A stretch of DNA of 14,579 bases from a virus. Lineage: Duplodnaviria; Heunggongvirae; Uroviricota; Caudoviricetes. Positions 4,872 to 13,099 of this stretch are shown one piece after another. The stretch lies in the IMG/VR virus record IMGVR_UViG_2529293240_000014; one strand, written 5' to 3'. The position numbers were made by a program, and so were the translations under genes. Positions within the stretch are counted from its first letter, which is position 1. Each line of letters starts with the position of its first letter. The notes below the pieces were generated by a model that saw only the letters and a program-made list of their open reading frames with translations, did not search any database and was not told where the DNA came from.

Positions 4872-5027
4872 TTACTTCCTGGATTCGTAGTCTACGAAGA
4901 CAGCGACCTCCGTCTGGCCGGTTCGGATTCGTACCTCACAGAGGTCTTTCCTCGTTACCAGCGCCGTCACTATGACGGTTAAACAGATGACGATCAGGGC
5001 GATTAACATCGCCTTTTGCTGCTTCAT
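4872..5027 (-). CDS. hok: Hok/Gef-family type I toxin (HokD/RelF-like), 51 aa
   Basis: Translation MKQQKAMLIALIVICLTVIVTALVTRKDLCEVRIRTGQTEVAVFVDYESRK: single TM helix plus conserved C-terminal Hok motif. ATG at 5027 preceded by AAGGAG. In-frame upstream ATGs at 5054 and 5084 give a mok-like overlapping frame. Confidence 0.85.
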   Translation of the reverse strand: MKQQKAMLIALIVICLTVIVTALVTRKDLCEVRIRTGQTEVAVFVDYESRK

Positions 5028-5034
5028 AGCCTGC

Positions 5035-5105
5035 TTCTCCTTGCCTTTCGGCATGTAAGAGGCTAACCTACATGTGCAAAGCATGAAATTGGCCTCAGAT
5101 TAATG
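5035..5105 (+). ncRNA. Putative Sok-like antisense RNA opposite the hok/mok translation-initiation region (inferred, boundaries approximate)
   Basis: Inferred from hok/sok architecture: the antisense regulator lies opposite the mok start (5054-5084). A possible plus-strand promoter is TTGCCT (5041-5046), 17 nt, TAACCT. Not directly demonstrable. Confidence 0.25.
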
Positions 5106-5254
5106 TTAAGCGTCTTGCCGGACGCGTAATGTTAACTGGGGCTTTTCTCTATCTGCCTTTTGGTGTTCATGCCTGAAGCAGATAGCCTCAAGCACCCGCA
5201 GTCATTCTACTTACCTCGCCAATATGAAATCAATCAGAAAGGTGCCCCATAAAA

Positions 5255-6088: not shown

Positions 6089-6445
6089 TTATTCAGTTCT
6101 GGATTTTGTCGCCCTGCGTATCCGCGCTTTCGCGTTACGCTCAATCTGTATCAGCTTTTCTATATTTCTCCGCCTTTCCTGTTCCTCCTGGCGCAATAGC
6201 CTTACATCATCTGCCAGTCTGGTTTCTCTTTTTGCCACAGAGAGCATCCAGTCAAACGGCTCCACAACCGCACCGCAGATTTTACAGCGGACCTGACGCT
6301 CTTTTTCGTCAACCCGTACAGAGGCGTGATGGCAATATGGTCTTTCCGATGGCTCATAAAGAAAATTAACCTGATTACGAGGGTCATCCTCTTTTATCGG
6401 AAATAAAACGATATTGCTTAACTCATCTTCTGGTTTTATTTCCAT
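6089..6445 (-). CDS. Hypothetical protein, 118 aa, putative zinc-ribbon plus basic coiled-coil tail
   Basis: ATG at 6445 preceded by AGGAGAGGAG. Translation MEIKPEDELSNIVLF...PYCHH...CKICG...; C-terminus rich in R/E/K/Q. Sits in the lambda ninB position; no family recognised. Confidence 0.55.
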   Translation of the reverse strand: MEIKPEDELSNIVLFPIKEDDPRNQVNFLYEPSERPYCHHASVRVDEKERQVRCKICGAVVEPFDWMLSVAKRETRLADDVRLLRQEEQERRRNIEKLIQIERNAKARIRRATKSRTE

Positions 6446-6502: not shown

Positions 6503-6925
6503 TCACAGTATCGCCTCCTGAAAATTACCCTGATAGAAAGCCAGTACACGCTGCATAGCTTCGCTCTTCCGGCACTCGCGACAGATTATATTCAGGCGCC
6601 TGTCGTAGCGGCGTATTTCTCCGTCAGGTAATGACCAGATAAGGTCCGGATCAACAACAACCGGTTTCCTCACCTTTACTCTCGAGAGTTTTTTGCGGGC
6701 GCTTTGCCAGTCCTTGCGAGCCTGTTCAGACGGGAATAAGCCGTAGCCAGAATTATATACATCACCACTTGCGACCAGTTCTATGCATAAGCGACCGACA
6801 GACGCACGACTGATACCTGTTTCATCGGACAACTGCCGAATCGTGACCCGACCGTCCTGATGCACGAGTTCCACAATTCGCGTCTTCAGTTCTTCCCGCT
6901 GTTCGGGAGTAAAAGGTTTCGCCAT
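6503..6925 (-). CDS. Ren-like protein (lambda Ren family, extended), 140 aa
   Basis: ATG at 6925 preceded by AGGAGG. HTH-like segment TIRQLSDETGISRASVGRLCIELVASGDV and C-terminal motif CRECRKSEAMQRVLAFY resembling lambda Ren (KECRQSAAMKRVLAVY). Position immediately after the DnaC/P-like gene. Confidence 0.6.
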   Translation of the reverse strand: MAKPFTPEQREELKTRIVELVHQDGRVTIRQLSDETGISRASVGRLCIELVASGDVYNSGYGLFPSEQARKDWQSARKKLSRVKVRKPVVVDPDLIWSLPDGEIRRYDRRLNIICRECRKSEAMQRVLAFYQGNFQEAIL

Positions 6926-8552: not shown

Positions 8553-8975
8553 TCAATGCACTACGACAGAATCGCCGGGCGACCCACCACCGCTGAAATG
8601 TGCTTTCCGGTAAACGGCCTGGACAGCATCATCATGCGCATCAATTGCCGTACTCAACGCTTCCTGCGCCGCCAGTAATGCACGGCGTTCCAGGGTATCG
8701 AAGATACAGAGTCGGTGACGCAGCTCACGCGGAAGAATTGCCAGAACCGCAGGGATCAGTTTCTGAATTTTTTCCCTTTGCGCTTTCGTTTCACCTTTCA
8801 ACCAACGGTGATAGATATTCTGCTGATTGTTCCAGTCCTTGCCTGGTACCAGAGACAATTCGCCGCCCCCCTGCCGCAGATATTCTTCAGTAATTGCGTT
8901 AGCGACCCACGCCTGCCCTTTTTCGGCTGCCAGGGCTAACAGCACTGATTCGATGTGCTCATGCCTGATTTTCAT
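8553..8975 (-). CDS. YdaT-like protein (Rac prophage family; lambda cII position), 140 aa
   Basis: ATG at 8975 preceded by AAGGTG. Translation MKIRHEHIESVLLALAAEKGQAWVANAITEEYLRQGGGELSLVPGKDWNNQQNIYHRW... matches my recollection of Rac YdaT. The 5' end overlaps the upstream cro-like gene by 17 nt. Confidence 0.6.
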   Translation of the reverse strand: MKIRHEHIESVLLALAAEKGQAWVANAITEEYLRQGGGELSLVPGKDWNNQQNIYHRWLKGETKAQREKIQKLIPAVLAILPRELRHRLCIFDTLERRALLAAQEALSTAIDAHDDAVQAVYRKAHFSGGGSPGDSVVVH

Positions 8976-9186
8976 GAATCACCTTCCCAGGTCGTTTTGC
9001 CTTACGATATTCGTCATAAACTTTGGGGTCGTACTGAAGTTCCCCGCCAGATGCCTCTTGCAGGCGCATCGCGCGACCTTCAGGAACCAGTTCCCCCCAT
9101 GCAGCAATGCTTGCCAGCCTAACTCCTGCGGCATTGGCAAGCTTTGTTTTGCTGCCAAAAAACGCTATAGCATCAATTTTCAACAT
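8959..9186 (-). CDS. Cro/YdaS-like small HTH regulator, 75 aa
   Basis: ATG at 9186 preceded by AAGGAG. HTH-like segment KTKLANAAGVRLASIAAWGE. Transcribed divergently from the repressor gene. Confidence 0.7.
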   Translation of the reverse strand: MLKIDAIAFFGSKTKLANAAGVRLASIAAWGELVPEGRAMRLQEASGGELQYDPKVYDEYRKAKRPGKVIHENQA

Positions 9187-9262
9187 ATCGAGCTCCTTAG
9201 ATTTTCCTAAGGAAACTAGACCGTAGAGAAACCTAAGTCTAAAAAAATTAGAATTCCCTAAT
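9187..9262. promoter_or_regulatory. Divergent immunity-region control region (OR-like) with operator-like sites
   Basis: 76-bp intergenic region. Palindrome TCCTTAG-attttc-CTAAGGA at 9194-9213 and a 15-bp site gtagagaaacctaag at 9223-9237 that recurs inverted at 9743-9757. Confidence 0.5.
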
Positions 9263-9670
9263 ATGAAAAACGAAACCTTCGGTGCTCGCCTCTTACATAG
9301 GCGTAAAAAATTAAAACTGTCTCAGGCCGCATTAGGTAAGCTGGTCAAAGTGGCTCACGTAACAATTTCTCAATGGGAAAGAGATGAAACACAGCCGGCG
9401 GGGAAAAGATTATTCGCACTGAGCCAAGCGCTTCAGTGCTCACCGACTTGGCTTCTTTTTGGGGATGAAGATAAACAACCAGGCGAACCGATCCCGGATA
9501 ATCAGCCAGCCATTCTGACAGAAGATCAAAAAGAGTTACTTCAACTGTTCGACGCACTGCCTGAGTCAGAGCAAAAGGCCCTGTTGTCAGAGATGCGTGC
9601 TCGAGTTGAAAATTTCAACAAACTTTTTGAAGAACTACTCAAAGCTCGCAAAAGAAGCGCAAACAAATAA
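9263..9670 (+). CDS. CI/RacR-like prophage repressor (XRE-family HTH, no peptidase domain), 135 aa
   Basis: N-terminal HTH LKLSQAALGKLVKVAHVTISQWERDETQP. Divergent from the cro-like gene. No SD, so possibly a leaderless or weakly initiated message as for lambda cI from PRM. Confidence 0.8.
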   Translation: MKNETFGARLLHRRKKLKLSQAALGKLVKVAHVTISQWERDETQPAGKRLFALSQALQCSPTWLLFGDEDKQPGEPIPDNQPAILTEDQKELLQLFDALPESEQKALLSEMRARVENFNKLFEELLKARKRSANK

Positions 9671-9703
9671 TCCCCTTTTTTCTCCACACCCTGTAATAAA
9701 AAG

Positions 9704-9731
9704 CACAAACTTTCAAACACTTGTGTTTTTT
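9704..9731 (+). terminator. Weak intrinsic terminator after the repressor gene
   Basis: CACAA-(12 nt)-TTGTG followed by TTTTTT; short stem, so low confidence. Confidence 0.35.
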
Positions 9732-9742
9732 ACATCAAAAAA

Positions 9743-9792
9743 CTTAGGTTTTTCTACACAAAAATCTTGACCGCCCTCCTTAGGTTATTCTA
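9743..9792 (+). promoter_or_regulatory. OL-like operator repeats downstream of the repressor gene
   Basis: cttaggtttttctac (9743-9757) is the inverted near-copy (1 mismatch) of the site at 9223-9237. A second related copy cttaggttattctaa lies at 9778-9792, overlapping a candidate -35 TTGACC at 9769-9774. Confidence 0.45.
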
Positions 9793-9872
9793 AATTTCAT
9801 TCATCAAGACACCGCACGGTGTTCTCAGCAAACAGTTCCGCTACCCCGGCGTTAAGGGGAAATGGGGTCAAC

Positions 9873-10028
9873 ATGAATACTATCGATCTTGGCAACAACG
9901 AATCTCTGGTGTACGGCGTGTTCCCCAACCAGGACGGCACATTCACCGCCATGACGTATACCAAAAGCAAAACGTTTAAAACCGAAGCTGGCGCACGTCG
10001 TTGGTTGGGAAGACATTCAGGTGAGTAA
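9873..10028 (+). CDS. Small phage protein (YdaG-like), 51 aa
   Basis: ATG at 9873 with G-rich upstream sequence. Translation MNTIDLGNNESLVYGVFPNQDGTFTAMTYTKSKTFKTEAGARRWLGRHSGE. The track's longer ORF from 9819 has no RBS. Confidence 0.55.
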   Translation: MNTIDLGNNESLVYGVFPNQDGTFTAMTYTKSKTFKTEAGARRWLGRHSGE

Positions 10029-10474: not shown

Positions 10475-11380
10475 CTATATTTCCAGACATCTGTTATCAC
10501 TTAACCCATTACAAGCCCGCTGCCGCAGATATTCCCGTGGCGAGCGATAACCCAGCGCACTATGCGGATGCCATTCGTTATAATACTCGAACGCCTCTGC
10601 AAGGTTCTTTGCTGCCGTTAACCCGTCTGGTTTGGGCATGATACTGATGTAGTCACGCTTTATCGTTTTCACGAAGCTCTCTGCTATTCCGTTACTCTCC
10701 GGACTCCGCACCGCCGTGTTCTTCGGTTCAAGTCCCAACATCCGGGCGAACTGGCGTGTTTCATTAGCCCGGTAGCATGAACCATTATCCGTCAGCCACT
10801 CCACTGGAGACGACGGAAGATCGTTGCCGAAGCGGCGTTCCACCGCTCCCAGCATGACGTCCTGTACTGTTTCACTGTTGAAGCCGCCGGTAGTCACCGC
10901 CCAGTGCAGTGCCTCACGATCACAGCAGTCCAGCGCGAACGTGACACGCAGTCTCTCTCCGTTATCACAGCAGAACTCGAACCCGTCAGAGCACCATCGC
11001 TGATTGCTTTCTTTCACGGCCACTCTGCCTGTATGTGCCCGTTTCGATGGCGGTACAGCAGGTTTTCGCTCAAGCAACAGCGCATTCTGGCGCATGATCC
11101 GGTAAACACGTTTGGCATTGATCGCAGGCATACCATCAAGTTCTGCCTGTCTGCGAAGCAGCGCCCATACCCGACGATAACCATACGTGGGCAGCTCTCC
11201 GATAACATGGTGTATACGGAGAAGCACATCCGTATCATCAGTGTGACGACTGCGGCGGCCATCCATCCAGTCATCGGTTCGTCTGAGAATGACGTGCAAC
11301 TGCGCACGCGACACCCGGAGACAACGGCTGACTAAGCTTACTCCCCATCCCCGGGCAATAAGGGCGCGTGCGCTATCCAC
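10475..11380 (-). CDS. insD: IS2 transposase InsD (OrfB), 301 aa
   Basis: Translation [59 protein letters not shown]... is IS2 InsD; overlaps insC as expected for frameshift-fused OrfAB. Confidence 0.92.
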
Positions 11381-11703
11381 TTTTTTGCCCGTCCATATTC
11401 AACGGCTTCTTTGAGGAGTTCATTTTCCATCGTTTTCTTGCCGAGCAGGCGCTGGAGTTCTTTAATCTGCTTCATGGCGGCAGCAAGTTCAGAGGCAGGA
11501 ACAACCTGTTCTCCGGCGGCCACAGCAGTAAGACTTCCTTCCTGGTATTGCTTACGCCAGAGAAATAACTGGCTGGCTGCTACACCATGTTGCCGGGCAA
11601 CGAGGGAGACCGTCATCCCCGGTTCAAAGCTCTGCTGAACAATTGCGATCTTTTCCTGTGTGGTACGCCGTCTGCGTTTCTCCGGCCCTAAGACATCAAT
11701 CAT
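11338..11703 (-). CDS. insC: IS2 InsC (OrfA, HTH transposase subunit), 121 aa
   Basis: Start at the [56 protein letters not shown]... Met (11703); the track's upstream extension lacks an RBS. Confidence 0.9.
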
Positions 11704-11794
11704 CTGTTCTCCAATGACTAGTCTAAAAACTAGTATTAAGACTATCACTTAAATAAGTGATACTGGTTGTCTGGAGATTCAGGGGGCCAGTCTA

Positions 11795-11836: not shown

Positions 11837-12354
11837 ATTCATTTCCTTACTGGTTGTGTGAGAACTTCAGTAAAGATACCACCAAAGCCCGGAGGTGGTG
11901 AAATAAAACCGGGCACAACACGAAGGCGCATTTCCGGTATCCATAAAGAGTCGGTCTTGTCTGTGAAATTTAAATGGTGGGAGTGCGCTTCCGGTTGTAA
12001 ATAACGACATTGCTGTGTGAAGTACCAGTTGGCGGCATCGGTTTAATTGCTGGCTGATGTCCGCCCTTTTTAAAGTGAATTTTGTGATGCGGTGAATGCG
12101 GCTATGCGCACGCGGCACAGTTAAAAGTCATGTTAGTCCTTATTGGTTTGGGTGGGAAAGCCAACTGTAATTGTTAACTGGTTAACGTCACCTGGAGGCA
12201 CCAGGCACCGCATCAACAAAGTTCACTTCGGTGATGAAAGGAAAGAGAAAATGTTGAATGTAGCTATTGAAAACCAGAACGGGTGGAATTATAGTGCACC
12301 TGCACCTCATAAAACGGGTGCCGGGATTGCTACCCCGACGATGACTACTGCGCA

Positions 12355-12378
12355 TAACCGCGCTCAGGCGGTTTTTTT
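12355..12378 (+). terminator. Terminator-like hairpin plus T-tract inside the Rha upstream extension (possible attenuator)
   Basis: AACCGC-gctcag-GCGGTT followed by TTTTT. Lies between the strong upstream RBS/ATG (12251) and the Rha-domain start (12545). Confidence 0.3.
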
Positions 12379-12544
12379 ATGCGTCAAGCACAGCCACATT
12401 CAGATTATGGTGGGGCGTGCAGGGCAGCCGCAAGGCTGGCCGGTTTCGGTAGTCACCGGTTGTAGCAACCCTGTGCGTCTCACCACCCATGAGATTGCTA
12501 CCTCTGGTGGTGAGTTATTTAAACTGACTATCGAGGCTGCCATC

Positions 12545-13099
12545 ATGGCTACTATCCTTACCCTTTCTCACCCTGACGTAACCATCGAAAATGGTCGCGC
12601 TGTCACTACGTCTGTTGCGGTTGCGGAGTTCTTCCGGAAAATGCACAAAAACGTTATTCAGAAGATCGAAACTCTCGAATGCTCGCCGGAGTTTAACCGG
12701 CTTAATTTTAAGCCCGTCACCTATACCGACGCCAAAGGCGAAAAACGCCCAATGTACCAAATCACCAAAAACGGCTTCGTTTTCCTGGTGATGGGCTTCA
12801 CTGGCAAAAAAGCCGCCGCATTCAAGGAAGCCTACATTGCTGAGTTCGACCGCATGGAGGCCGAACTGCGCCAGAATAACACCCCACCTGCTGACAAGAT
12901 GATTCCGGGTGATGGTCGCACTCTGGTTGTTCACTTCGACAAATTCGGCAATGTCGAATTCACCGAAACCGTTCCTGATGGCGCACTGGTCTGTACCCTG
13001 GAGACTTTCCGGTTTTATCTGGAAAAACAGGGATGGACTCTTGTTAACCGGGGCGCAATTAAAAATATGACTGTGGAACAATTACTTTCTTTAAAATAA
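12545..13099 (+). CDS. Rha-family phage regulatory protein; start ambiguous (12545, or 12251 with a 98-aa N-terminal extension)
   Basis: Rha-domain motifs AVTTSVAVAEFFRKMHKNVIQKIETL...KRPMYQITKNGFVFLVMGFTGKKAAAFKEAYIAEFDRME. ATG at 12545 preceded by GAGG; the in-frame ATG at 12251 has a stronger AAGGAAAGAG site. Confidence 0.7.
   Translation: MATILTLSHPDVTIENGRAVTTSVAVAEFFRKMHKNVIQKIETLECSPEFNRLNFKPVTYTDAKGEKRPMYQITKNGFVFLVMGFTGKKAAAFKEAYIAEFDRMEAELRQNNTPPADKMIPGDGRTLVVHFDKFGNVEFTETVPDGALVCTLETFRFYLEKQGWTLVNRGAIKNMTVEQLLSLK

Follow-up and report, generated by a model that had tools for sequence, protein, structure and literature searches.

In the window, by which we mean the whole stretch of 14,579 nucleotides analyzed here, a P22_Cro-family gene lies divergent from a gene for an HTH_3 repressor, followed by YdaT and ydfA/DUF1391 genes (Pfam). 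The cro-like gene (positions 8959 to 9186, minus strand) encodes a 75-residue homologue of DicC (P22_Cro, E value of 3e-13; 75% identity to K-12 DicC), and the repressor gene (9263 to 9670, plus strand) encodes a 135-residue homologue of DicA (HTH_3, E value of 8e-14; 62% identity to K-12 DicA). The N-terminal domain of the repressor aligned with P22 c2 over residues 2 to 69 (E value of 1e-21; 41 of 68 residues identical, 60%). Matches to solved structures (PDB) covered only the N-terminal ∼69 residues, and Pfam matched HTH families alone, with no S24 peptidase or LexA-like domain detected in the protein. Downstream of the ydfA/ydfB-like genes lies an IS3-family transposase pair (10475 to 11748). 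No Rfam match to the DicF small RNA was detected in the window, nor was dicB found there; the IS3-family element may interrupt the operon, with dicF and dicB lost or displaced. Positions 12143 to 13099 hold an Ant/Rha-like gene, accompanied by C4 and isrK RNAs. Near-identical DNA, with dicA and dicC annotated, is found in the O157 PPompW prophages, and this allele of the cassette was detected in ∼229 of 5,426 complete Escherichia coli genomes (matches spanning 80% or more of the 1.2-kb query).

The predicted promoter of the cro-like operon (9213 to 9241, minus strand) comprises a −35 hexamer TAGACT (9241 to 9236), a 17-nt spacer, and a −10 hexamer TAGTTT (9218 to 9213); in more distant relatives, TTGACT stands in place of this −35. 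The Shine-Dalgarno (SD) sequence of the cro-like gene, AAGGAG, reads CTCCTT on the plus strand (9193 to 9198), and the start codon lies at 9186 to 9184 on the minus strand. For the repressor gene, a −10 element (TAGAAT) is predicted at 9249 to 9254 on the plus strand; in the different HTH classes, TTAGAAT is conserved 8 nt ahead of the ATG. Because no SD precedes the ATG at 9263, the repressor mRNA is predicted to be leaderless. Beyond the repressor gene, a terminator-like hairpin (inverted repeat AAAAAGCACAA...TTGTGTTTTTT; 9697 to 9732, plus strand) folded at −9.6 kcal/mol (z score of −4.2), and none of 200 shuffles folded as well. It is followed by a dicBp-type promoter (9767 to 9796, plus strand; TTGACC at 9767 to 9772, an 18-nt spacer, and TAAATT at 9791 to 9796), which is predicted to drive ydfA (9873 to 10028) and the genes downstream. 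Promoter prediction, suggested in an earlier note on this DNA, returned the dicBp-type promoter but missed that of the cro-like operon, a poor match to consensus (TAGACT/TAGTTT).

The earlier note had described operator-like 15-bp repeats in inverted orientation on both sides of the repressor gene, together with a separate palindrome. As read from the sequence, the 15-mers gtagagaaacctaag (9223 to 9237) and cttaggtttttctac (9743 to 9757) are indeed reverse complements with one mismatch. A third copy (cttaggttattctaa, 2 mismatches) is present as claimed, but its true register is 9779 to 9793, one position off the 9778 to 9792 originally given. The palindrome TCCTTAG-ATTTTC-CTAAGGA at 9194 to 9213 does overlap the SD of the cro-like gene; rather than a separate element, it is the best, consensus copy of the same motif, in the position of K-12 operator Oc. 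Repeats and palindrome are thus one dyad family and not two kinds of element, with the core TTAG-N6-CTAA and the full form TCCTTAG-N6-CTAAGGA (or, alternatively, CCTTAGR-N4-YCTAAGG, which fits the 18-bp geometry of P22 sites). We rejected a directional 15-mer repeat because every copy proved to be a dyad built like K-12 Oc in its geometry. The unit of the site is the dyad, 14 bp in its core and 18 to 20 bp overall. Names of K-12 operators are taken from PMC3441716 and PMC10448788.

Five copies of the dyad were found: three occupy the 76 bp that separate the cro-like gene from the repressor gene, and two lie around the −35 of the first promoter beyond the latter. O1 (9194 to 9213), a perfect dyad and exact match to the motif, begins on the final base of the predicted cro-like −10 and spans the predicted transcription start and the SD; K-12 Oc and P22 OR1 are its positional equivalents. 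O2 (9220 to 9239; accGTAG-agaaac-CTAAGtc) is imperfect, holds the first 15-mer, and sits inside the cro-like promoter, between its −35 and −10, with the right half overlapping the −35. O3 (9245 to 9264; aaaTTAG-aattcc-CTAAtat) has an exact core and was missing from the earlier list, which was therefore incomplete on the OR side. This site overlaps the repressor −10 (TAGAAT), the start of the predicted leaderless mRNA, and the repressor start codon, and it corresponds in position to P22 OR3. Past the far end of the repressor gene, OL-distal (9741 to 9760; aaCTTAG-gttttt-CTACaca) holds the second 15-mer; the −35 of the leftward-operon promoter follows directly downstream, as at P22 OL2. OL-proximal (9777 to 9796; tCCTTAG-gttatt-CTAAatt), which has an exact core and holds the third copy, fills the promoter spacer and overlaps the −10, like P22 OL1. 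No third OL site was found between 9671 and 9872 when up to 2 mismatches were allowed. One half is degenerate (GTAG) in both O2 and OL-distal, and the two sites have 14 of 15 bases in common, spacer included; a repeat search of the window returned them as an inverted pair of 16 nt with 94% complementarity. Four exact site strings had no occurrence in the searchable literature.

The dyads are concentrated in the two regulatory regions, well beyond what chance would give. All three exact matches to TTAG-N6-CTAA in a scan of the window fell inside these regions, as did five of the eight matches with at most one mismatch. When the regulatory regions were shuffled locally, the mean number of motif matches was 0.22, and 0 of 20,000 shuffles reached five. 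Of 2,000 dinucleotide shuffles, 3 contained a 15-mer in one intergenic region that matched, with at most one mismatch, the reverse complement of a 15-mer in the other. GC content of the intergenic regions was 34% and 41%, versus 49% for the window.

We compared 65 related loci with distinct regulatory variants. Site centers lay at −59.5, −33.5, and −8.5 from the repressor ATG, with an additional pair 35 to 36 bp apart around TTGAC. In all alleles compared, the O1 center was at −59.5 and that of O3 at −8.5 or −9.5. Half-sites were kept while spacers drifted: in the window's own class, variable columns numbered 1 of 24 in the cores and 26 of 52 elsewhere (Fisher P = 6e-5). The GTAG..CTAAG form of O2 was retained in relatives of the same HTH class (class W, with SQAA in helix 2) whose proteins are only 79 to 85% identical, and O2 was degenerate in other HTH classes. 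Among the downstream variants listed, the CTTAG..CTAC form of OL-distal was invariant in 30 of 32; one listed exception has a TTTAG left half and a CTAA right half, and in one further variant of the 65-locus comparison the distal site was undetectable. The TTAG/CTAA halves of OL-proximal were kept in 32 of 32 listed variants, with the 5 to 7 bp between the −35 and the site varying freely, and the two OL sites were 35 to 36 bp apart in all HTH classes. In viral contigs, scanned to test the specificity of the perfect palindrome, it lay exactly 60 bp upstream of a DicA homologue in 31 of the 80 matches listed, and this spacing held at every one of the 31 listed loci where the palindrome adjoins such a gene. 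The other 49 listed matches lay in unrelated contigs, mostly of low GC content (for example, as a repeated terminator hairpin), as expected when a pattern that specifies 14 bases is run against a collection of very large size.

The flanks of the half-sites covaried with the recognition domain of the repressor. Helix 2 with SQAA was paired with CCTTAG..CTAAGG in 42 variants, and TQR[S/E/A] was paired with TGTTAG..CTAACA in 23. The base just outside TTAG is C in the window allele and G in K-12 and the four other HTH classes, a half-site change that accompanies an Arg-to-Ala change at the third residue of helix 2 (TQR.. to SQA..). Since the flank covaries with helix 2, the window appears to hold a family member with a different allele or specificity, although the covariation may rest on a single evolutionary event (one CC clade). 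It is the flanks of O1 and the OL sites that covary with the DicA HTH, and not with DicC. O3 and the DicC HTH are common to two classes that differ in DicA HTH and O1 flanks, which suggests that O3 tracks DicC. The overlapping −10 (TAGAAT) and −35 (TTGACT/TAGACT) elements, and not protein binding, could account for why O3 and the right half of O2 are conserved.

The homologous K-12 locus provides experimental precedent. DicA at Oc represses dicC and activates dicA, and single-base mutations in Oc abolish DicA binding in vivo (PMC3441716). Operators at both dicCp and dicBp are described for K-12 in PMC10448788, which cites Bejar 1988. K-12 Oc (TTGTTAG-N6-CTAACAA, TTGTTAGTCATAACTAACAA) has the same geometry and position as the window palindrome; the operator of K-12 specificity, TTGTTAG..CTAACAA, is absent from the window, which has TCCTTAG..CTAAGGA instead. 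The start of dicC transcription was mapped by 5′RACE (PMC3441716), and the dicA mRNA has been documented as leaderless (PMC4681348, Fig. 2A). In vivo, binding of K-12 DicA was detected at Oc only and not at Om or Oa, the equivalents of O2 and O3 (PMC3441716). O2 and O3 may therefore be weak sites, sites filled only through cooperativity, or sites that DicA does not use.

Taken together, these data lead us to assign a probability of roughly 0.85 to the reading in which this locus serves a lambdoid prophage as its immunity (lysis/lysogeny) switch, one of the Qin/Kim dicA-dicC kind with five operators for the DicA-like repressor. The OR/OL-like reading of the earlier note is supported in part: operator-type sites flank a CI-like repressor gene and are mirrored as in the OR and OL of lambda and P22, an arrangement backed by homology to K-12, by conserved positions, and by covariation across the 65 loci. 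In the switch that we propose, dimers of the 135-residue DicA-like repressor would bind the five dyads via a P22 c2-like helix-turn-helix. Occupancy of O1 and O2 would turn off the minus-strand operon (dicC-like, ydaT-like, and replication genes) and free or activate the weak, overlapping repressor promoter. O3, on the repressor −10 and start, would be the likely turn-off site, bound by Cro-like DicC, by excess repressor, or by both. On the OL side, occupancy would block ydfA and the genes downstream. The mirror orientation of the sites follows from the two promoters firing away from the repressor gene. Since the repressor has no LexA-like domain, induction is expected to proceed by an antirepressor and not by RecA cleavage; in K-12, DicA has no site for RecA cleavage, and the antirepressor Rem controls it (PMC10448788).

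Lambda-style looping, also raised in the earlier note, is an unlikely addition to this switch, and we found no evidence for it. Under this scheme, the repressor bound at O2 and OL-distal, near-identical mirror copies 521 bp apart, would bridge the two regions and enclose its own gene in a loop, giving tighter repression and autoregulation. Operator sets flanking the repressor gene are a prerequisite for looping in lambda, and the window has them; moreover, the likeness of O2 and OL-distal extends through the spacer and is retained in relatives 79 to 85% identical. Against looping, the repressor, at 135 residues and with structure matches that stop at residue 69, lacks the LexA-like C-terminal domain that mediates formation of lambda CI tetramers and octamers. 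O1 and OL-proximal are 532 to 673 bp apart, with 16 distinct distances, among which close relatives differ by single base pairs (582 to 589). No 10.5-bp phasing was detected (R = 0.17; P of about 0.6), phasing being a weak test at ∼550 bp. Finally, the other HTH classes combine a degenerate left half of O2 with a perfect-dyad OL-distal; the likeness of these two sites is therefore not a family feature but confined to the allele class of the window.

It is less probable still, to the point of being very doubtful, that Cro-like DicC or CII-like YdaT, and not the DicA-like repressor, is the main protein to bind these sites. Cro and repressor bind the same operators in lambdoid switches. In O157:H7, overexpressed DicC represses dicA (Pan 2019, cited in PMC10448788); the O157 dicA/dicC copy studied is not specified (PMC6915034). 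The sharing of O3 and the DicC HTH between classes that differ in repressor HTH and O1 flanks, and the lack of in vivo DicA binding at Oa and Om in K-12, also favor DicC. Against this, the O1 and OL flanks covary with DicA, and K-12 Oc is a genetically demonstrated DicA site. The recognition sequence of YdaT is different (TTGATT-N6-AATCAA; PMC11879457), and a copy of it lies elsewhere in the window, at 8965 to 8982. For these reasons, binding by DicC is better regarded as a partial complement, through shared operators, than as a replacement. That the repeats bind no protein and only reflect the AT-richness of promoter sequence, or are what an old duplication or inversion of the promoter region left behind, is scarcely credible: the intergenic regions are AT-rich, and several half-sites overlap −10 or −35 hexamers that would be conserved anyway, but none of the composition-matched local shuffles reached five sites, the dyad halves are kept while their spacers drift, the flanks covary with the repressor HTH, and the homologous K-12 site loses function by single-base changes.

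Returning to the immunity switch of the dicA-dicC type, the window allele would recognize CTTAG half-sites and K-12 DicA GTTAG half-sites, a difference that probably confers separate immunity specificity (heteroimmunity). A composite reading is possible, but we hold it tentatively and lean against it as a whole: the allele would have a specificity of its own among DicA-family repressors, with O1 and the OL sites tracking the repressor and O3 tracking DicC, and the GTAG-half pair of O2 and OL-distal would perhaps be bridged by a repressor tetramer. If true, several DicA-type prophages could coexist in one E. coli genome without cross-repression, with cross talk through DicC still shared. The OR/OL reading is right and is already published for K-12 dicA-dicC, so its value as a discovery is small: the layout has been known since 1986 to 1988, and Oc is the "gold standard" DicA site (for the K-12 dicC-dicA-dicBp locus, see Bejar 1986 and 1988, Yun 2012, and Ragunathan and Vanderpool 2023). 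The modest gain is a practical one: the operators and probable promoters of a DicA allele that is common yet undescribed, and a simple candidate specificity rule that pairs CTTAG or GTTAG half-sites with A or R, respectively, in helix 2.

Among known systems, the Rac racR-ydaS-ydaT region, named as a comparator in the earlier note, shares with the window a general CI/Cro/CII-like layout. We rejected racR-ydaS as a homologous region: RacR and YdaS gave no significant alignment with the window repressor and cro-like protein, TTAG-N6-CTAA is absent from the racR-ydaS intergenic region, and the Pfam YdaS_toxin match in the window fell below cutoff (20.4 versus 30 bits). Only ydaT is Rac-like, its product being 94% identical to Rac YdaT, and a YdaT-box-like dyad (GTGATT-CATGAA-AATCAG; 8965 to 8982, minus strand) lies over the ydaT start codon where the Rac box reads ATGATT-CATGAA-AATCAA. 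With lambda, the window shares a divergent repressor/cro pair, a tripartite OR, a mirrored second operator set beyond the repressor gene, and a leaderless repressor mRNA (predicted in the window); the OR-OL distance is ∼0.55 kb in the window versus 2.4 kb in lambda, and the operators have no sequence similarity, as the earlier note had anticipated. The Gifsy-type repressors GfoR and GfhR (Lemire 2011, cited in PMC10448788) are short and controlled by antirepressors; the window repressor is likewise short and non-cleavable, and its induction is expected to run through an antirepressor.

P22 is closer, and the Qin/Kim dicA-dicC switch is itself a P22 immC-type module. P22 and the window have an identical QAALGK in helix 2, a Cro of the P22_Cro family, three dyads in the c2-cro gap, and an OR3 whose center precedes the repressor ATG by ∼9 bp (by 9.5 bp for c2 in a P22-type phage). 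PL of a P22-type phage reads TTGACC-N5-operator-TAAATTT, with a second operator 34 to 36 bp upstream, a layout found again in the dicBp-type promoter, and the P22 strings TAGTCAAG and AACTATG are common to DicA-family loci. Unlike those of the window, P22 half-sites read A(T/C)T(T/A)AAG around 4 central bp in 18-bp sites. P22 has three OL sites, whereas two are detectable in the window. P22 c2, at 216 residues, carries at its C terminus a cleavable, LexA-like domain responsible for both cooperativity and RecA induction, in place of which the window repressor has an unrelated ∼50-residue tail.

The closest likeness is to K-12 Qin/Kim. The cassette DNAs are too diverged for megablast, and the half-site flanks (CCTTAG/CTAAGG in the window versus TGTTAG/CTAACA in K-12), inner base (purine versus pyrimidine), and HTH helix 2 (SQAALGKLV versus TQRSLAKAL) all differ. 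In the window, dicC is followed by a full-length ydaT of the Rac type, and in K-12 by the truncated ydfX, and dicF and dicB, part of the K-12 operon, were not found in the window. Gene order (ydaT/ydfX-like, dicC, dicA, ydfA), repressor length (135 residues), and the TTAG-N6-CTAA core are the same, with site centers at −59.5, −34.5, and −9.5 in K-12 and −59.5, −33.5, and −8.5 in the window. The dicA mRNA is leaderless in K-12, and the window repressor gene lacks an SD. The layout of K-12 dicCp (TTGACT-17-TATCTT) recurs in the predicted cro-like promoter, and that of dicBp (TTGACC-17-TAATCT) recurs in the dicBp-type promoter with its 18-nt spacer; in both loci the proximal OL site lies between TTGACC and the −10. 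The window thus has the features of a DicA-DicC module: a divergent ∼135-residue HTH_3 repressor without a peptidase domain, a P22_Cro gene, dyads at the Oc, Om, and Oa positions, and a second operator set at the ydfA-operon promoter. Judged by its sequence, the window locus is an allele, probably of different specificity, of the dicC-dicA-ydfA immunity region of the E. coli Qin/Kim prophage.

The minus-strand cro-like gene (8959-9186; 75 aa, P22_Cro family) and the plus-strand repressor gene (9263-9670; 135 aa, HTH_3) are followed on one side by a YdaT-family gene and then replication genes (one O-like, one DnaC-like) and on the other by ydfA (DUF1391). Nucleotide identity is 94.6% with PPompW prophages of E. 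coli O157, whose copies are annotated as dicA and dicC, and rises to 99.4% with a prophage in strain FDAARGOS_943; about 229 of 5,426 complete E. coli genomes have 80% or more of the 1.2-kb query. In the Qin prophage of E. coli K-12, DicA (also 135 aa) is 62% identical to the repressor and DicC 75% identical to the cro-like protein, but the cassette DNA is too diverged for megablast, and similarity returns only from about 9802, just past the downstream promoter's -10 hexamer. The N-terminal domain of P22 c2 matches the first 69 residues of the repressor (E 1e-21, 41/68 identical, with an identical helix 2, QAALGK). A Pfam search of the repressor for an S24 peptidase domain found none, and nothing was detectable past the N-terminal domain.

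An earlier note had described two 15-mers, gtagagaaacctaag (9223-9237) and cttaggtttttctac (9743-9757), as reverse complements with one mismatch; both were found there, and a repeat search extended the inverted pair to 16 nt (94%). A third copy, which the note placed at 9778-9792, exists with two mismatches, its true register being one base to the right (9779-9793). The palindrome at 9194-9213 does overlap the ribosome-binding site (AAGGAG) of the cro-like gene, which starts at 9186 on the minus strand, as had been claimed, but is not a separate element: the single dyad TTAG-N6-CTAA accommodates everything listed, making the palindrome the consensus copy of the same family, and the 15-mers are dyad copies with one degenerate half (GTAG). 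Three dyads lie between the cro-like and repressor genes, O1 (9194-9213, TCCTTAG-attttc-CTAAGGA), O2 (9220-9239, accGTAG-agaaac-CTAAGtc), and O3 (9245-9264, aaaTTAG-aattcc-CTAAtat), the last absent from the earlier list. Two more lie downstream of the repressor gene at the ydfA promoter, OL-distal (9741-9760, aaCTTAG-gttttt-CTACaca) and OL-proximal (9777-9796, tCCTTAG-gttatt-CTAAatt). Of 2,000 dinucleotide shuffles, 3 produced an inverted pair of 15-mers between the two intergenic regions with one mismatch or none. With at most one mismatch allowed, the dyad occurs eight times in the 14.6-kb window, five times within the two short regulatory regions, which also hold all three exact matches; shuffles of these regions at their own AT-rich composition gave a mean of 0.22 matches, and five were reached in 0 of 20,000.

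Homology and position suggest how these sites would work as a switch. The predicted cro-like promoter on the minus strand, TAGACT (9241-9236)-17-TAGTTT (9218-9213), aligns base for base with TTGACT-17-TATCTT of K-12. O1 shares one base, the last, with the -10 and extends over the predicted start (about 9206) and the Shine-Dalgarno (SD) sequence of the cro-like gene, and O2 fills the promoter spacer and touches the -35; given this overlap, repressor at O1 (and O2) would be expected to block the cro-like/ydaT/replication operon. The predicted -35 (9236-9241, minus strand) is TAGACT in the window versus TTGACT in more distant relatives of the same class and in other classes, possibly a down-mutation stabilizing the repressed state of the prophage. 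The repressor gene has no SD, its ATG is preceded at 8 nt by a conserved TAGAAT (9249-9254), and its -35 (GAGAAA) is poor, so its transcript is probably leaderless and its promoter weak. This predicted promoter and that of the cro-like gene overlap back to back, and repressor synthesis would be raised by shut-off of the cro-like promoter or by direct contact from O1-bound repressor; such a rise is reported in K-12. The hairpin at 9697-9732 (-9.6 kcal/mol, z -4.2) probably ends the repressor transcript. Beyond it, at the ydfA promoter, OL-distal comes immediately before the -35 and OL-proximal covers the spacer and -10, so placed that occupied sites would silence the ydfA operon. The copies on the two sides are in mirror orientation because the two promoters point away from the repressor gene, as they do in lambda and P22. 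The 5' leader of the ydfA operon (9803-9865), highly conserved across immunity classes, holds two short hairpin-forming strings, CACCGCACGGTG and CCCCGGCGTTAAGGGG, a possible nut-like site or RNA processing/stability element.

O3 sits on the -10 and start of the predicted repressor promoter and would be the obvious off-switch of the repressor gene. Two classes that differ in DicA HTH and O1 flanks have the DicC HTH and O3 sequence in common: in the E. albertii/ruysiae-type class (e.g., comparison loci L004 and L094-L101), the DicC HTH is almost that of the window class and O3 is the same, whereas the DicA HTH and the O1/OL flanks (TGTTAG) differ. Simple linkage is unlikely to account for this sharing because the order is dicC-O1-O2-O3-dicA, and the pattern suggests that O3 co-evolves with DicC and O1 with DicA. 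In K-12, Om and Oa, which correspond to O2 and O3, showed no DicA binding in the in vivo assay (PMC3441716). The portion of PMC10448788 that cites Pan 2019 reports repression of dicA by DicC overexpression in O157. Taken together, the shared HTH and O3, the unbound Oa, and the O157 effect point, speculatively, to DicC as the likelier main occupant of O3, paralleling Cro at lambda OR3.

Scanning with aligned DicA sequences yielded 19 genomic and 80 viral loci, and across the 65 with distinct regulatory regions, site offsets were unchanged in all HTH classes. The two bases flanking TTAG on the outside vary in step with the repressor's helix 2: SQAA repressors (the window class, including relatives only 69-85% identical) accompany CCTTAG..CTAAGG (42 variants), and TQRS, TQRE, and TQRA repressors (K-12, E. 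albertii/ruysiae, Citrobacter, Symbiopectobacterium, and Rahnella) accompany TGTTAG..CTAACA (23 variants). Because this covariation is probably a single evolutionary event, it supports but does not prove a specificity difference between the classes. Among 19 distinct intergenic sequences of the window class, 1 of 24 core columns varied versus 26 of 52 elsewhere (Fisher p 6e-5), and the spacers of the sites drift. Downstream, the 5-7 bp from TTGACC to the proximal site vary freely; CTTAGG..CTAAAT and CTTAGGTTTTTCTAC are nearly fixed. Taken as a whole, the pattern is the footprint expected of operators. Generality of the motif, which the earlier note had held would count against its proposal, was not borne out for phage DNA: of the 80 loci listed with the perfect palindrome in viral contigs, 31 have a DicA homologue, at a distance of exactly 60 bp in every case, and the remaining 49 lie in unrelated contigs, mostly of low GC, a result compatible with chance or other hairpins such as terminators. 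In one of these viral contigs, L175 (27% GC), AAAAAATCCTTAGATTTCTCTAAGGATTTT occurs twice in identical form (6162-6181 and 6697-6716), 535 bp apart on either side of a small gene; the copies look like terminator hairpins and fit the O1 pattern by coincidence, with no DicA homologue nearby.

The proposal of OR/OL-type operators flanking the repressor gene thus appears right in essence, with details corrected. Its extension to lambda-style looping between the two sides by the repressor is very unlikely and drew backing from none of the tests run (C-terminal domain, spacing, and site likeness). The repressor has no CI/LexA-type C-terminal domain; OR-OL spacing runs from 532 to 673 bp, changes by single base pairs among close relatives, and shows no 10.5-bp periodicity (R 0.17), phasing being a weak test at such a distance. 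The near-identity of O2 and OL-distal is confined to the window class; in other classes, the left half of O2 is degenerate and OL-distal is a perfect dyad.

The suggested comparison with the Rac racR-ydaS region led elsewhere: RacR and YdaS of K-12 Rac gave no alignment with the window repressor and cro, and TTAG-N6-CTAA is absent from the racR-ydaS gap, but the window YdaT is 94% identical to that of Rac. By sequence comparison, the window is thus a mosaic, with a Qin/P22-type immunity cassette (about 8990-9800) between a Rac-type right arm and a Qin-type ydfA arm. The joints fall at ~8975-9000 and ~9800; the arm from ydaT onward is Rac-like at the protein level, the arm from about 9802, right after the ydfA promoter -10, is Qin-like (about 90-92% DNA identity), and for the intervening cassette (dicC-like, operators, dicA-like) megablast gives no match in K-12. 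A YdaT-box-like dyad, GTGATT-CATGAA-AATCAG (8965-8982, minus strand), has the ydaT-like start codon in its spacer. YdaT binds the near-identical Rac box, ATGATT-CATGAA-AATCAA, with activation of a reverse CII/PRE-like promoter that sits inside the cro analogue and drives the repressor gene (PMC11879457). Given the YdaT identity, the DicA-like gene of the window may be fed by this circuit as well.

Shortly past the ydfA/ydfB-like genes, an IS3-family element with two overlapping transposase ORFs (10475-11748, minus strand) interrupts the operon, whose K-12 counterpart runs on to dicF and dicB; Rfam found no DicF in the window. A Rha/Ant-like regulator ORF (12143-13099, plus strand; phrog_995; real start probably near 12251) is overlapped by Rfam matches to isrK (12302-12378, 61.5 bits) and C4 antisense RNA (12403-12490, 75.7 bits). 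By analogy, the arrangement suggests an RNA-controlled antirepressor module of the P1/Gifsy style, a candidate inducer for the non-cleavable DicA-like repressor; DicA itself has no site for RecA cleavage, and the antirepressor Rem lifts its repression (PMC10448788). The minus strand also carries a cluster of four prophage tRNA genes (1107-1414; Val-TAC, Thr-TGT, Arg-TCT, and Met-CAT) and a sok antitoxin RNA (5022-5197, 117 bits), presumably beside a hok-type toxin; hokD is annotated in L002, the 99.4%-identical locus.

The site strings of the window had no match in the searchable literature, and the operator set of this common DicA allele may therefore be undescribed. Its architecture is not new: a textbook layout, in what looks like a heteroimmune allele of a system already studied in depth. 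The K-12 dicA-dicC gap and dicA-dicBp region have three operator-like sequences each, likened to lambda OR/OL in the portion of PMC10448788 citing Bejar 1988. DicA binds in vivo to the 20-bp inverted repeat Oc, TTGTTAGTCATAACTAACAA, which corresponds to O1, and one A-to-C change abolishes binding (Yun et al., PMC3441716). Oc overlaps the -10 of the dicC promoter mapped by 5'RACE; DicA at this site represses dicC and is required for dicA to be expressed (PMC3441716). The K-12 dicA mRNA has been documented to be leaderless (PMC4681348, Fig. 2A). Oc is itself TTAG-N6-CTAA, and the centers of Oc, Om, and Oa lie at -59.5, -34.5, and -9.5 from the dicA ATG, compared with -59.5, -33.5, and -8.5 from the repressor ATG in the window. 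The dicBp side of K-12 has TTGACC, a 17-nt spacer holding a TTAG-N6-CTAA site, and TAATCT, with a degenerate second site 35 bp upstream; the downstream window sites, 36 bp apart, bracket TTGACC (9767-9772)-18-TAAATT (9791-9796), the sole promoter-like match outside coding sequences in this region in a promoter scan. The one P22-type phage compared follows the same plan, with three 18-bp dyads, the OR3 center 9.5 bp before the c2 ATG, and a PL of TTGACC-N5-operator-TAAATTT with a second operator 34 bp upstream; it has TAGTCAAG (the PR -35 read on the opposite strand) and AACTATG in common with DicA-family loci. If the inner purine/pyrimidine is counted in the half-site, the window operator can be written CCTTAGR-N4-YCTAAGG, which is the 7+4+7 geometry of P22.
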